Origin: Escherichia phage AV127
DNA: 53,045 nt
Reading direction: 5' to 3' (one strand)
Sequence record: OR352957
The notes beneath the pieces were generated by a model that saw only the letters and a list, made by a program, of their open reading frames with translations, was not told the DNA's origin and did not search any database. Positions 3,205 through 53,045 of this stretch are shown piece by piece (position 1 is the stretch's first letter; each line of letters starts with the position of its first letter). The position numbers were made by a program, and so were the translations under genes.

Positions 3205-3370
3205 AAGCTTATTTTACAAACTGATTAATATTTAAACTATAATTAAATATATGGGCGATAAGAGTATGATTTTATTACTCTTTTACTAGTCATAATATAT
3301 GGCCTCGATAAATAAAAATAAAGGGGGTAATAAGGGGATACAAGTACCGGATAAAAGGGGGTATATATTT

Positions 3371-3402
3371 ATTTATTATTATTATTATTATTATTTATTA
3401 TT
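3371..3402. repeat. (ATT)n microsatellite in AT-rich intergenic region
   Basis: Read directly: about 10 ATT units with one interruption. Confidence 0.85.
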
Positions 3403-3653
3403 AATTATATTAGAAGTAATAAAAACAGCTACTTAGAGGCGTCTATATGTATGATCCGGTTTATCTCTTTATTAATATCAGAACCGGATGAAAAAAATTT
3501 ACGCCGGTGAAAAATAATAAAAAACCGGACTGATAAATAATTCGTAGGCATGTCTAAAGCCAGGCGTGGCAAGCTTCGGTGATATTTACTATGTTATTGT
3601 ATGTTAGTGTGCGTTATAATATATTTATTATTCAACAGATGAGTTGTGCAACT

Positions 3654-4090
3654 ATGAATCCAATTGTAAAAGTATTTGAAGGTAAAAATATCACATTTTC
3701 ATCAATTAATAGAGGAACCAAAATGGTTCCCCTCATTGTTGTTAAAGGAAGCGATTTAGCTAAAGCGCTAGGTTACAGTCACTCGAAAAAAAACTTTATA
3801 AAAGGTTAGACAGCGATTATAAAATTACTGACGACAAAGGAACAGTATGGGTAACTGAACCAGGTATTTATCAGGCTATATTCGGTTCACATCTTGAATC
3901 AGCTAAAGCATTTCAGCGCTGGGCGTACGAAGAAGTATTCCCAACCATTCGTGGGAATGGTTATTACGTTACACCAGAGCTTCAACCAGCGCTGGATCTA
4001 CTGTCTGATGAAATAGACTTACTCCGTGCGTATGCTACAGCTGACTGTCACGGAAGAGCAAGGCTTAAGTCAAGAATTATGACAGTATGA
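3654..4090 (+). pseudogene. Bro-N domain (antirepressor-like) gene interrupted by a -1 frame change inside an A8 homopolymer (3786-3793)
   Basis: Frame 0 reads ...DLAKALGYSHSKK then stops at 3807; frame -1 continues ...LYKRLDSDYKITDDKGTVWVTEPGIYQAIFGS...AKAFQRWAYEEVFPTIRGNGYYV to stop 4088-4090; together a typical Bro-N domain. Confidence 0.55.
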
Positions 4091-4155
4091 AAAAAACAAG
4101 TAGAAAATGGTAACTCTTTGGACCGCGTAGTCCAGATTTTAAAAGGAAACAGTGC

Positions 4156-4587
4156 ATGGTAAATATTAGAGCGAAGGGCCAAAACTTTGAGCGTAAAATG
4201 GCTAAAAAATTTAATAGCTCGTTCGGATTAACTGTTGAGCGCAATCTTCAACAGTCTATTAATGGCGGGGATGACTTGTTGGGTGTGCCGTTTTTCAGCG
4301 TTGAACTGAAGAAGCACAATACCAAGTCTATCGGAACATGGTGGAGACAGTGTGCGGCATCGGCAAAGGCTCAGAACAAGATGCCAGTGCTTATATACGA
4401 ACTACCAAGAAAACAGCCTACCGTGGTGATGAATAAGGCTGATGTGATTGACTGCTTTCCAAGTGGCACGACTTTTAACGAGGCATCAAATCGCCTCTTT
4501 GTGGGTCTAGTAGAATTAACATGGGAACAATTTTGCCGGGTCTACAACTATTACGTTGCGCCCGGCACTCAGTATCATGTCAATTAA
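4156..4587 (+). CDS. Putative T7 endonuclease I-like Holliday junction resolvase
   Basis: 143 aa; GGDDLLGVPFFSVELKK resembles the PDFLLPNGIFVETK catalytic D...ExK segment of T7 gp3 (recalled, not searched). Confidence 0.4.
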   Translation: MVNIRAKGQNFERKMAKKFNSSFGLTVERNLQQSINGGDDLLGVPFFSVELKKHNTKSIGTWWRQCAASAKAQNKMPVLIYELPRKQPTVVMNKADVIDCFPSGTTFNEASNRLFVGLVELTWEQFCRVYNYYVAPGTQYHVN

Positions 4588-7889: not shown

Positions 7890-8384
7890 GTGGGTAACAT
7901 TATGAAAATTGTTCAATTAGAGCCATATCCGCCTCAATTGGCTATCGTTTGTAGCGAAAAAGAGCACGAAGAGCTCCAAAAACTGATGGATTTGCCTGAT
8001 TTTGGCAACTGGAATGACCGGGAAACGCGTAATGCATCTACCTTTACATTCTCTCGCGTTAACTATCCGTACCTGTTAATCGTCGTCGAACTGTACCACC
8101 CGGACGACCTGAAGTACAACACCATTTCCCACGAAGGCATTCACGTAATGTCGTCGCTGATGAACTATGTAGGACTTAAATACGACCCAGAAAACGACGA
8201 ATGGTACGCATATCAGCATGATTTCATCGTAAATGCCATTTGTAAGGCCCATGATGAGTACCTGGAGCGCAAAAAAGCGCCAAAAACTAAGCCAAAAATC
8301 GAAACAGGTAACCATCCTGCTATACTGCCACAAGACGTTATGAACTCGCTTTTGACTGACACTACTGGGGACTTTTTTAGGTGA
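7890..8384 (+). CDS. Hypothetical protein with HEGIH (HExxH-like) motif
   Basis: ORF track; GTG at 7890 or ATG at 7902, weak SD. Confidence 0.4.
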   Translation: MGNIMKIVQLEPYPPQLAIVCSEKEHEELQKLMDLPDFGNWNDRETRNASTFTFSRVNYPYLLIVVELYHPDDLKYNTISHEGIHVMSSLMNYVGLKYDPENDEWYAYQHDFIVNAICKAHDEYLERKKAPKTKPKIETGNHPAILPQDVMNSLLTDTTGDFFR

Positions 8385-25487: not shown

Positions 25488-25910
25488 ATGATCATCGATT
25501 CTTCTGAATGCGTGTTGAGCCTGAATGGTGTTCAGCTGTCCGACTGGGCAGACGGTGCCGATGTCATTGACGTGCAATGGGTGGACCCAGCTTCCACCTA
25601 TCTTGCAGGTGCAGATGGCAATGGCATTCAGATTATGAACCCGTCCAAAGCNNCTATCAAGGTTAAGCAAAATGGTCCGGATGCCAAATGGCTTAACGAC
25701 CAGTACAACCTGCAGCGTAACAACATTCGTGGATTTGTCCCGTTTGTGCTGCAAGCCAAAGACCTGCTAAACCAGGATTTGGCATGGGGCAAAAAAGGTT
25801 ACTTTACCGATGGTTCCCCGTGGACTCGCGGTAACGGCCATAACCCGACTACCTTCGCTATTGTGTTCCACCAAGGTGGTATGCAGTTGACTGAAGGCTT
25901 TGACCAGTAA
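25488..25910 (+). CDS. Putative tail tube protein (contains 2-nt N gap at 25651-25652)
   Basis: 140 aa after sheath-like gene. Confidence 0.5.
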   Translation: MIIDSSECVLSLNGVQLSDWADGADVIDVQWVDPASTYLAGADGNGIQIMNPSKXXIKVKQNGPDAKWLNDQYNLQRNNIRGFVPFVLQAKDLLNQDLAWGKKGYFTDGSPWTRGNGHNPTTFAIVFHQGGMQLTEGFDQ

Positions 25911-29095: not shown

Positions 29096-29511
29096 TGATA
29101 TTTACCACAACNNNNNNNNNNNNNNNNNNNNNNNNNNNNNNNNNNNNNNNNNNNNNNNNNNNNNNNNNNNNTATTTACGACTTGGAACCTACCTCCGAAG
29201 GTAAGCAATCAATATCAATTTCTACCGCTGGATATACGTATAACATTGAGTTGTACTATAACACGGTAGGTCAGCTCTGGCAGGCTACAGTGACTGACAT
29301 ATCAAGTAATGCTGTACTTTGTTCCAGTTATGCTTTACAATATGGGCGTATTGCTTTTGGTAACTGGGACACGCGTATAGCGTTGCTGGTAAGTGACAAA
29401 TCCTCCAGCCGCATCGGTCCTATGACTACAGATGACATGGGAGGACGTTGCAGTGTCTACATCGTCGACAAAACAGCCTACCCGTCAGTTTGGCCGCGCG
29501 TTAAAGCTTGA
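29095..29511 (+). CDS. Hypothetical tail protein interrupted by 60-nt N gap
   Basis: ORF track; N-run 29112-29171 makes frame and length unreliable. Confidence 0.3.
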   Translation: MIFTTXXXXXXXXXXXXXXXXXXXXXIYDLEPTSEGKQSISISTAGYTYNIELYYNTVGQLWQATVTDISSNAVLCSSYALQYGRIAFGNWDTRIALLVSDKSSSRIGPMTTDDMGGRCSVYIVDKTAYPSVWPRVKA

Positions 29512-37066: not shown

Positions 37067-37276
37067 TTAGTTCGTTATACTGCGCACACGCCGCACACAA
37101 TACTGTACCAGGTAAAAGCTGACGCCTCTTTTCTTCAATATCATCCCACACTGGTAGCACGTCAGCGGGCTTACGCCTGTATATCTGACACGGTTTGACA
37201 GTGCTGCTTCACGGGCCACTTGTTCAGCTTCTGCCGCCATATCATTAAGGTCTGATGTGCGTGTAGTTTCAATCAT
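37067..37276 (-). CDS. Hypothetical small protein (69 aa)
   Basis: ORF track; last gene of minus-strand block. Confidence 0.35.
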   Translation of the reverse strand: MIETTRTSDLNDMAAEAEQVAREAALSNRVRYTGVSPLTCYQCGMILKKRGVSFYLVQYCVRRVRSITN

Positions 37277-40559: not shown

Positions 40560-41542
40560 TTATACGGCCATTTGGAGTTTGATGTTTGGCATTGGTTTGT
40601 ACTTCTCAACCATTGGCGCAACATCGGTAGGAGTGAAGTCAAATACTGACACGTCATAAATCGCGTTAATGTCAGGACGACCTTCAAAGTTAGTGTCCAG
40701 TGTAGTATCAGAATTGCTTACGATACGTTGCAGGAAAATCTTTGCCGCATCGATATGATTCTGATAGATGTGATAGTCACCCAACGTAACAGTCATATCA
40801 CCTACCCCAGTACCCAGCTCAGCAGCAATGGTAATCTGCAGCATTTGATGCAACAGAATATCGTGAGGCAGACCCAGAATAACATCCGCGCTACGCATGT
40901 GGAACATCAGCTCTAATTCATTACGGTTGTTAATGAACAGCTGAAAACCATGGTAACAAGGCGGAAGGGCCATGGCGTCCATCTCTTGTGGGTTCCACGC
41001 CGTAATGTACGCCCTGCGGTCAGTAGGCTTAACCTTCAGCGTTTCAATAACATCTTTAAGCTGGTTAGTAAGAACACCATTCTTATAGAAAGGCTTAATC
41101 CATTGCACGCCGTATACCGGACCTAAGTCACGGTTGTCTGGTGTACCCCAACGTTTGTTTGCATCCTGCAGGTTACCTTCCCACCAGTTGCAGCCAAAGC
41201 CTTTGAGCGTGTCGACGTTTGAAATGCCGTTGATAAAGCAGTAAAGCTCAGCAGCAACAGCTTTGATGTTAACAGGTTTAAACACCGGCACCATCAGTTT
41301 GTTGTCGTTGAAAGCCAGTTTAAACGCTGTACCAAAACAACGGCGGGTNNNNNNNNNNNNNNNNNNNNNNNNNNNNNNNNNNNNNNNNNNNNNNNNNNNN
41401 NNNNNNNNNNNNNNNNNNNNNNNNNNNNNNNNNNNNNNNNNNNNNNACCAACACCTGTACGGTCTACAACATCCTCACCTTTACGCAGGATAAAAGAAAT
41501 GATGTCGCTGTAAAGAGAATCGACAGTGCTGTATGTTTTCAT
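40560..41542 (-). CDS. Thymidylate-synthase-fold pyrimidine C5-modifying enzyme, predicted dCMP-directed; interrupted by 98-nt N gap
   Basis: DRTGVG, LGPVYGVQW, DRRAYITAWNPQEMDAMALPPCYHGFQ; Asp in GLPHDILL where ThyA has Asn (GLPFNIAS). Confidence 0.65.
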
Positions 41543-47078: not shown

Positions 47079-47094
47079 AGGGGCCGAAGCCCCT
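47079..47094 (-). promoter_or_regulatory. Intercistronic RNA hairpin GGGGC-UUCG-GCCCC between SSB-like gene and dCMP deaminase
   Basis: Same 14-nt core as 40538-40551; lies at the left edge of the tandem duplication. Confidence 0.55.
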
Positions 47095-47769
47095 ATTGAA
47101 TATCTACTCGGCAGGGATTACTCTTCCCAAGGAGCTGCTTCACCGTCATCAGCACCAGGTGCCGTTGCAGTAGCATTCGCCTTCGTTGAAGTACCCGCAC
47201 CTGCACCTACTTTCTTCGTCGTCGATGCAGTTGCTTGAGACTGACCGCCTACTGCAGTAGTTGCTTCAGTTGACGCTTTGTATTCACGAATATCGTTCTG
47301 TGGGTCGTACTCACCGGTCTTGTCAACGCGAATACCTACTTTGCCAGCTACGATACGGTTTTCCAGCATACCAGTAGAAGTCAGTTCAACAATACCCAGA
47401 GCACGGCACAATGCAGACAGTTTGCGCCGAAGCCCCTATTGAATATCTACTCGGCAGGGATTACTCTTCCCAAGGAGCTGCTTCACCGTCATCAGCACCA
47501 GGTGCCGTTGCAGTAGCATTCGCCTTCGTTGAAGTACCCGCACCTGCACCTACTTTCTTCGTCGTCGATGCAGTTGCTTGAGACTGACCGCCTACTGCAG
47601 TAGTTGCTTCAGTTGACGCTTTGTATTCACGAATATCGTTCTGTGGGTCGTACTCACCGGTCTTGTCAACGCGAATACCTACTTTGCCAGCTACGATACG
47701 GTTTTCCAGCATACCAGTAGAAGTCAGTTCAACAATACCCAGAGCACGGCACAATGCAGACAGTTTGCG
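47084..47769. repeat. Tandem direct duplication, two 343-bp units (47084-47426 and 47427-47769)
   Basis: Units read as identical; junction CAGTTTGCG|CCGAAGCCCC. Confidence 0.85.
47118..47411 (-). pseudogene. Truncated duplicate of the SSB-like gene 3' half (97 codons, no proper start)
   Basis: Protein identical to C-terminus of 47461-48006; upstream frame hits a stop at the duplication junction. Confidence 0.55.
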
Positions 47770-51799: not shown

Positions 51800-51814
51800 G
51801 TTTAATTACTCGGC

Positions 51815-52255
51815 TTATTCCGTATCTGCCGGTGTGAATGTTACAGTCGGAATACCTGGTGAAGTCTTCACAACAGGGTCGACGATAGCCAGCTGTTCTG
51901 GTGTCAGGTTACGATACGCAGTAACTGACATTTCGTACTTGGTTTTAAACAGCTTGGCAACAACAGTCTTCGGTAACTTCTTCATTACGTCAGGCACAAG
52001 CTTCTGATCAAGTGAGCGGTTAACCTTCTGCTCAACCTTGAGTTTACCAGGTACGCCATGCATGCTGAACTCAACCGTTTGTGTACCTTCTTTACCGCGG
52101 TTGATAATCATGTCGCGTTCAAGACGAGCCTTAATGGTCCGGCGCAACGTCTCCTGGTCAGCTTTCGCTTGTGCCATCCAGCGGTTCAGATTCGCCAGCT
52201 TGTCGTACAGCTGTTCCGTGTCCATCGATTCCAGTTCTTGTGGGGTCAGTGCCAT
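51815..52255 (-). CDS. Hypothetical protein (start at internal ATG)
   Basis: GAGGAAA SD before ATG 52255 (MALTPQELESMD...). Confidence 0.45.
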   Translation of the reverse strand: MALTPQELESMDTEQLYDKLANLNRWMAQAKADQETLRRTIKARLERDMIINRGKEGTQTVEFSMHGVPGKLKVEQKVNRSLDQKLVPDVMKKLPKTVVAKLFKTKYEMSVTAYRNLTPEQLAIVDPVVKTSPGIPTVTFTPADTE

Positions 52256-52526
52256 CAGTTGTTTCCTCAGGTTGCATGTGTATAGTTGCACCGATCAGTA
52301 AGCAATAGTTATTGAACATTGTACGTAGGGCTTGGCCCGCAGCAATATCCGTTACGTCTATTATACCACTTTTAGTGGTGACGCGTAAAGCTTTTTCTTT
52401 CTTTGTTTTTTCCACGAATGCAATGCTGATGATTTCTTCCGCATGGATTACGTGGATGGTACCTGCAAACTCACCAGTCTTAGCTGGCGCCTGGTACACT
52501 AACGACATAGACGGTTGGTTACTCAC
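52158..52526 (-). CDS. Hypothetical protein (122 aa); its 3' part overlaps the next promoter and gene
   Basis: ORF track; AGGAG before GTG 52526; true extent uncertain. Confidence 0.3.
   Translation of the reverse strand: MSNQPSMSLVYQAPAKTGEFAGTIHVIHAEEIISIAFVEKTKKEKALRVTTKSGIIDVTDIAAGQALRTMFNNYCLLIGATIHMQPEETTDGTDPTRTGIDGHGTAVRQAGESEPLDGTSES
52350..52379 (-). promoter_or_regulatory. Early promoter TTTACG-N18-TATAAT with CACCAC...GTGGT inverted repeat
   Basis: Minus strand reads TTTACGCGTCACCACTAAAAGTGGTATAAT. Confidence 0.45.
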
Positions 52527-52536
52527 TTAATTGCTC

Positions 52537-52974
52537 CTATTTATATAAGTCCATCCAGTTACGATACTCGTCATAAAACCGGTCAAACTCGTTTTTGGTG
52601 AGTGCAATAGCAACACCATTTACCAGATGCATGGTTCGTGTTTTGATGTTGACATACATGACATTGCTGTACGGAAATAAGCTACCGTCATTGTCAGTGA
52701 AATAAGTAGGTGTAATATGAAGCGCATCACGCAATGCAACCAGTGATTCAACAGCTTCAGCGTGCCATTCACGTTTGAAGGTCATGCAAGGCGGTGCACC
52801 GTCTTCGTCCTGGGTACCGCGCAAAGTAAGGTATACAATTTCGGCAGTATCATTGTGTACAATTACGCTAATGTCAACGATGTCGCTGGTACGGAAGGTA
52901 ACAAAGTGCTCTTCAATTACTTGTTCGTCGGTATTAGGGCTGACGCCCTGAAAGGTCTTGAGTGTGTGAAACAT
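52537..52974 (-). CDS. Hypothetical protein (145 aa), first gene of the minus-strand early block
   Basis: AAGGAG SD 8 nt before ATG; 5' end lies in the terminal repeat (also present as 1-156). Confidence 0.5.
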   Translation of the reverse strand: MFHTLKTFQGVSPNTDEQVIEEHFVTFRTSDIVDISVIVHNDTAEIVYLTLRGTQDEDGAPPCMTFKREWHAEAVESLVALRDALHITPTYFTDNDGSLFPYSNVMYVNIKTRTMHLVNGVAIALTKNEFDRFYDEYRNWMDLYK

Positions 52975-53045
52975 TGGTTGTATCTCCTTAGCAGAATATA
53001 CGTCTATTATGTATATAAAGGAGGGGAAAGTAAATAGATATAAAT
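52819..53045. repeat. Terminal redundancy copy 2 (direct repeat of 1-227)
   Basis: Exact identity to window start; unit length 52,818 bp. Confidence 0.9.

Follow-up and report, generated by a model that had tools for sequence, protein, structure and literature searches.

In Escherichia phage AV127, the gene for a Bro-N-domain protein carries two disabling changes, a lengthened A tract that breaks the reading frame within the domain and a substitution that turns a conserved tryptophan codon into a stop, and both lesions are unique to this genome. We interpret this gene as a recently inactivated copy (a pseudogene) of a dispensable Rosemountvirus early gene and assign a probability of roughly 0.5 to this reading. 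The window analysed here is the whole AV127 stretch of 53,045 nt (sequence record OR352957), and all positions refer to it.

The Bro-N frame is opened by an ATG at 3654 and runs into exactly eight A residues at 3786-3793. Translated without a shift, frame 0 begins with MNPIV, ends with GYSHSKKNFIKG and stops at TAG 3807-3809 after 51 aa; in its fuller reading it gives MNPIVKVFEGKNITFSSINRGTKMVPLIVVKGSDLAKALGYSHSKK, then NFIKG, then the TAG. Up to the break, this remnant corresponds by orthology to codons 1-46 of birk gp22 and of SPLA11 Ant. Past the A8 run, the -1 frame continues from KKLYKRLDSDYKITDDKG to RIMTV and the stop codon TGA 4088-4090, and when it is read directly from the run, it gives KKLYKRLDSDYKITDDKGTVWVTEPGIYQAIFGSHLESAKAFQRWAYEEVFPTIRGNGYY...RIMTV. 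No ATG, GTG or TTG is present in the -1 frame between 3794 and 4078, start codons being absent until the last three codons of 3794-4090, and the program-made list of open reading frames holds no ORF in this frame of that segment. The features of the region are the following:

3654..3809, + strand: 51-aa frame-0 remnant ORF, consisting of 46 native Bro-N residues, five out-of-frame residues (NFIKG) and TAG
3786..3793, + strand: A8 tract, ancestrally A6 (Lys45-Lys46), with a +2 insertion that causes the frame break, as judged by ortholog comparison
3794..4090, + strand: continuation in the -1 frame, with the remainder of Bro-N (Pfam) and the beginning of the C-terminal module
4088..4090, + strand: nonsense TGA in place of the invariant TGG (W145*), an AV127-unique codon 145 in the ortholog alignment
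4091..4162, + strand: untranslatable remnant with the last 23 sense codons (KKQVENGNSLDRVVQILKGNSAW) and the ancestral TAA 4160-4162, as placed by the orthologs
4156..4587, + strand: intact next gene of 143 aa, with 100% identity to its birk counterpart; Pfam PDDEXK_15 (PF24608), E 7e-18

An earlier note, made from the letters alone, had proposed a split Bro-N gene whose parts are joined by a -1 shift within the A8 run, and the Pfam searches confirmed this proposal. The N-terminal piece matched profile positions 14-33 of Bro-N (PF02498; E 0.095, 13.8 bits, below the cutoff of 25.6), the C-terminal piece matched positions 32-96 (E 2.9e-8, 34.6 bits, cutoff 25.6), and an intact ortholog matched positions 14-96 (E 1.3e-12, 48.6 bits). 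Because the two pieces adjoin on the profile, the break falls inside the domain, at about position 32 of 96, and the domain is not encoded in one uninterrupted frame in AV127 (frame change at 3786-3793). The PHROGs families named "anti-repressor Ant" match the same region as Bro-N. Searches of PDB sequences and NCBIfam returned nothing significant, and an AlphaFold2 model built on a 3-sequence alignment had a mean pLDDT of 50.8, with values above 75 only in a helical hairpin at about residues 110-150. The frame-repaired AV127 protein significantly matches the Bro-N family, which includes baculovirus BRO proteins and the N-termini of many phage Ant/KilAC-type proteins, at positions 14-96; unlike other members of that family, it is short and carries a small helical module instead of a KilAC/ANT C-terminal domain.

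By megablast against GenBank phages, AV127 belongs to the genus Rosemountvirus, whose members are BP63-like virulent myoviruses of Salmonella and E. coli; it is 92-98% identical to many Rosemountvirus records, none of which is the same genome. The region was fully aligned in 15 GenBank records, most of which annotate a 507-nt CDS as "anti-repressor Ant" or "hypothetical protein". In total, we read 21 orthologs, comprising 14 from GenBank, 3 from ENA/Logan that were reached via a protein database and 4 from Logan assemblies that were reached via the neighbouring gene. In 20 of these 21 orthologs the tract is A6 (AAA AAA, Lys45-Lys46) or GA5 (Glu-Lys), together with the TGG codon and an uninterrupted ORF of 163-168 codons. 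The remaining one, from phage SB2, has an A7 tract and is frameshifted, and its depositors annotated the downstream part only. Because A6 or GA5 is nearly universal among the orthologs, the AV127 tract has gained two A residues (+2 insertion), and six or nine A residues restore the frame. The earlier note had named seven or ten, which is wrong: A7 reads TCG AAA AAA ACT TTA TAA, the state of SB2.

The second lesion lies at codon 145, where TGG is invariant in all 21 orthologs and where Trp is also kept in a stand-alone homolog of the phage nenneke. In AV127 it is replaced by TGA 4088-4090, and position 4090, previously taken as the end of the gene, is thus the site of a mutation, the true end being TAA 4160-4162. 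The same G to A change converts GA6 into an A7 run (4090-4096). Judged from the aligned relatives, the ancestral gene is 3654-4162 (509 nt in AV127), and its TAA overlaps the ATG of the next gene (4156) as ATGGTAA; a full-length ORF reaching this TAA is no longer present in AV127 (+2 frameshift and W145*). The orthologs annotated as Ant or as hypothetical protein, for example those of birk (gp22, YP_009857682.1), SPLA11 (WNT47310.1) and triss (triss_22, QIN99042.1), occupy the same locus with a nucleotide identity of 92-98%, between the AT-rich intergenic region on the primase side and the PDDEXK ('RusA-like') gene. Unlike the AV127 gene, they are uninterrupted, with A6 or GA5, TGG, a product of 168 aa and a stop codon overlapping the next ATG.

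The intergenic region between the primase gene and the Bro-N gene contains an AT-only microsatellite, (TTA) x13 at 3362-3412, which is annotated as a repeat_region in several relatives, and AACCGGA-type motifs recur at 3440-3530 in AV127. A promoter and terminator consensus scan found fewer promoter-like sites than in shuffled sequences and nothing convincing upstream of 3654.

After repair of both lesions, the AV127 protein is 100% identical to that of SPLA11, with 0 nonsynonymous and 8 synonymous differences between the genes, and apart from the lesions only one synonymous site in the gene is unique to AV127. Purifying selection acts on the intact copies, whose 120 pairwise comparisons give a mean dN/dS of about 0.33. 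Because the repaired protein is identical to that of SPLA11, the lesions are either recent or artefactual, and together with the purifying selection this means that the gene was functional until very recently in this lineage, or that it still is and the lesions are errors. The same identity is also a point against a pseudogene, as it gives no sign of prolonged relaxed selection, and two lesions against one other unique substitution in the gene are somewhat unexpected under inactivation.

The SB2 allele is 92.9% identical to that of AV127 and 98% identical to that of Lis2204; because the SB2 and AV127 alleles differ, the tract changed twice independently. In SB2, the Bro-N gene is the sole broken conserved gene. 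The simplest explanation for the A7 of SB2 and the A8 of AV127 is that the tract is prone to mutation and that the phages tolerate the loss of the gene. Exact-pattern scans with a 35-38-nt invariant stretch beside the tract found no match in IMG/VR, JGI metagenomes or GTDB genomes, and exact-protein look-ups returned none for the 51-aa and 56-aa fragments of AV127, its frameshifted DksA-like product or its primase; neither raw reads nor a second assembly of AV127 turned up.

The A8 tract at 3786-3793 is the only homopolymer of at least 8 nt in the 53 kb, and it coincides exactly with the frame junction. Composition alone makes such a run unsurprising, with one 8-nt run observed against 4.0 in shuffled sequences; long A/T runs are under-represented, 7-mers numbering 7 against 13.6 expected from the shuffles.

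If the gene was truly inactivated, replication slippage would have extended A6 (Lys45-Lys46) to A8, and ribosomes would stop at TAG 3807-3809 after 51 aa. The Trp145 codon TGG would have become TGA when the G that borders a second A6 run on its 5′ side changed to A, and a dislocation-type misalignment at the edge of the run would yield such a change. Because the downstream piece has no start codon, normal decoding is expected to yield the 51-aa fragment only. A few percent of full-frame product may arise from an extra transcribed A or from a -1 ribosomal slip on A_AAA_AAA/C, and it would still end at the TGA, without the last 24 residues. The preferred reading further draws on the fact that two independent disabling changes occur in one 509-nt gene and that the second is a substitution, not a change in run length.

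A less probable explanation, next after inactivation, is that sequencing, assembly or polishing created both lesions and that the real phage has A6 (or A9), TGG and an intact gene. Both lesions sit at A runs and lengthen them, as some sequencing and polishing errors do, and the otherwise complete identity of the repaired protein to that of SPLA11 also speaks for errors. The integrity of the remaining genome was considered as well: all 74 annotated birk proteins were searched against AV127, and every indel relative to the complete genomes of birk and SB2 was listed. Among the conserved genes of AV127, just two have a broken frame, the Bro-N gene and a DksA-like gene, and the latter is again broken by an AV127-unique homopolymer change (G4 to G3), which speaks for an artefact, as does the end of the gp08 homolog, where T5 has become T6. 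The N runs (25652-3, 29112-29171 and 41349-41446), the identical ends of 227 nt and an exact 343-nt tandem duplication likewise suggest a draft-grade assembly. Against errors, the tract changed by +2 rather than by +/-1, and the other lesion is the substitution of a base. Moreover, 39 of 42 homopolymers (A/T of at least 6 nt and G/C of at least 5 nt, including A7, T7 and G6) are as long in AV127 as in SB2 or birk, and all large genes (primase, polymerase, terminase, portal and tail proteins) are intact, whereas an error-prone platform would be expected to break more. The independent SB2 record is altered at the same tract with no other conserved gene broken, which looks more like biology than random error. 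The other AV127 indels that are not multiples of three are intergenic or occur as compensated pairs in divergent stretches.

Several further peculiarities of the AV127 record were noted during this comparison. The DksA-like zinc-finger gene (37067-37276, - strand), an ortholog of birk gp47 and of the 'transcriptional regulator' of SB2, is frameshifted at about 37145, where the loss of one G changes TGTGGGGATG to TGTGGGATG and replaces the second CxxC with unrelated residues. At 8373-8378, T6 in AV127 corresponds to T5 in birk and SB2, so that the gp08 homolog ends in …GDFFR* instead of …GDFLGD*, with no effect on the GTG start that overlaps it downstream. Relative to birk, a single stop is present in each of the gp26 and gp27 homologs (52134-52526 and 51809-52177, - strand), the one in gp27 (TAA for GAA) lying three sense codons (EAE) before the stop of birk; because both stops are also found in SB2, they are inherited allele differences and not errors.

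A 100% identical tandem duplication of 343-344 nt (47083-47426 and 47426-47769) spans the 3′ third of the SSB gene together with the spacer that follows it and makes a duplicate ORF of 97 aa; it is absent from birk and SB2 and may be either real or an artefact of assembly or circularisation. The first 227 nt (1-227) are identical to the last 227 (52819-53045), leaving a unique length of 52,818 nt, and this overlap may represent either direct terminal repeats or a circular-assembly overlap. Of the three N runs (25652-25653, 29112-29171 and 41349-41446), the 98-N run lies inside thyA, and because birk has no intervening bases there, it represents a scaffold gap of the wrong size or else a masked AV127-specific insertion.

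We also weighed whether the A8 run could make expression slippage-dependent, leaky or switchable, the frame being restored when RNA polymerase stutters to A9, when ribosomes shift by -1 or when replication slips in a fraction of the phage population, and we regard this as improbable. The frame-0 codons TCG AAA AAA AAC do contain the slippery heptamer of the X_XXY_YYZ type as A_AAA_AAC (and G_AAA_AAA), and in this phase A_AAA_AAA/A_AAA_AAC counts among the classical motifs for -1 slippage. E. coli dnaX and IS3-family transposases use A_AAA_AAG-type sites for programmed -1 ribosomal frameshifting. The AV127 site resembles these sites in having an A-rich slippery heptamer in the correct phase, but it differs in that its A-site codon is AAC/AAA and not AAG, the downstream stem-loop and the conservation are missing, and the ancestral gene needs no frameshift; in the 70 nt downstream of the tract, no stimulatory RNA structure exceeded the shuffled sequences (-7.1 kcal/mol, z = -0.38). 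A conserved programmed frameshift was rejected because the ancestral state is in frame.

With respect to transcription, an A8 run in human apoB is reported to give a frame restoration of about 10% by transcriptional slippage (PMC1088944), so that weak slippage may occur at the A8 of AV127 as well. The run of 8 nt is nevertheless shorter than the A or T runs of about 9 nt or more at which slippage is taken to matter, and in many bacterial genomes selection against A/T runs is evident only from about 9 nt (Baranov et al. 2005, PMC1088944). Slippage-rescued bacterial genes (Baranov et al. 2005, PMC1088944; Citrobacter tssM, PMC4256274; Shigella mxiE) are frameshift-interrupted at A/T runs. AV127 is similar in that an A run lies precisely at the junction of two overlapping frames, which one extra A in the mRNA would fuse; it differs in that the run is 8 and not 9 or more, the arrangement occurs in one genome only, and a second stop truncates the rescued product. 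Even a restored product would stop at TGA 4088-4090 and lose the conserved Trp and 23 further residues, which are part of a module that is kept as a separate gene in nenneke, and 20 of 21 orthologs read the gene in a single frame, so that the split arrangement is not conserved.

Homopolymer contingency (phase-variable) loci are known in bacteria, and poly-G tracts of this kind are known in Campylobacter phages. The tract may resemble such loci in that it sets the reading frame and differs in length among close relatives (6, 7 and 8); it was expanded twice independently, and one more A (A9) would restore the frame. Dissimilar to them, it is short and A-rich, and it is accompanied by a second, non-reversible lesion. 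Across the 22 copies including AV127, the length is 6 in 20 (counting GA5), 7 in SB2 and 8 in AV127, and because both deviating copies are out of frame, the pattern looks like drift and not like toggling. The earlier note had left a sequencing error, a pseudogene and a slippage switch side by side without a choice. All three are formally possible, but the comparison makes a copy that is dead or mis-sequenced more likely than a designed on/off switch because the frameshift is unconserved (20 of 21 orthologs in frame) and the gene carries the second lesion W145*.

The idea that the two parts have become separately functional polypeptides, an N-terminal peptide of 51 aa and an independently translated C-terminal protein, is very improbable. 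The stand-alone gene of nenneke for the C-terminal module indicates that sub-fragments of the Bro-N protein can exist as genes; however, the AV127 break lies within the Bro-N domain and not between modules, and the C-terminal module is itself cut by the TGA. Independent translation of the downstream piece was rejected because the -1 frame lacks a start codon over 3794-4078.

That the gene is accessory further favours the inactivation reading. In about two thirds of the Rosemountvirus records matched, the alignment is confined to the flanks of the Bro-N slot, which lies upstream of the PDDEXK gene. The slot is empty in yarpen and PA13076, contains an annotated homing endonuclease in LPSEYT (MH181876; 1013-1513 of the examined piece) and in nenneke (MT074437) holds a 68-aa ORF (1027-1233 of the examined piece) that overlaps the start of the PDDEXK gene. 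The slot is a swap site, and because its content varies among Rosemountvirus genomes, the Bro-N gene is dispensable and accessory. In nenneke, the 68-aa ORF stands alone and is homologous to the final ~60 residues of the Bro-N protein (…DLLRAYA…GRARL…W..Q.ENG.S…), and the protein thus consists of two modules, an N-terminal Bro-N domain and a helical C-terminal module of about 60 aa. The neighbour at 4156-4587 is called a 'RusA-like (Holliday junction) resolvase' in the annotation of relatives, but Pfam assigns it to PDDEXK_15 and not to RusA, and the inherited name is probably wrong. Because the Bro-N stop overlaps the start of the PDDEXK gene in intact relatives, translational coupling of the two genes is likely.

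The 'Ant' label on the Rosemountvirus protein is a transfer from PHROG and annotation names, and the anti-repressor role is putative. The genus has been described as virulent (PMC13097653), so that a cognate repressor is not to be expected, and the protein would have no obvious anti-repressor target.

A further reading, that the A tract at Lys45-Lys46 is a recurrent and selected off-switch, starts from the observation that the Bro-N gene is the sole broken conserved gene in SB2 and one of two in AV127. Silencing of the Bro-N protein could benefit the phage on some hosts, for example because a host defence senses it or because of its toxicity during laboratory propagation, and A8 would allow a trickle of product by transcriptional slippage while being one step (A9) from reversion. 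We consider such a switch improbable, and the loss of a dispensable gene by ordinary mutation remains our preferred reading.

For annotation, 3654-4162 should be recorded as the Rosemountvirus Bro-N gene in disrupted form, either a pseudogene or a candidate sequencing error, and neither as a 51-aa ORF followed by non-coding DNA nor as a recoding site. The gene family, the locus and the type of lesion are all known already, and the finding is an ordinary one whose value lies in annotation; of mild interest is the independent breakage of this one short tract in two genomes whose conserved genes are otherwise all, or nearly all, unbroken. For Salmonella phages that are therapeutic candidates, it means that the Bro-N gene is dispensable and that the A6 tract is where this gene tends to break. 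If this recurrent breakage is in fact selected, the implication would be a host factor acting on Bro-N proteins.
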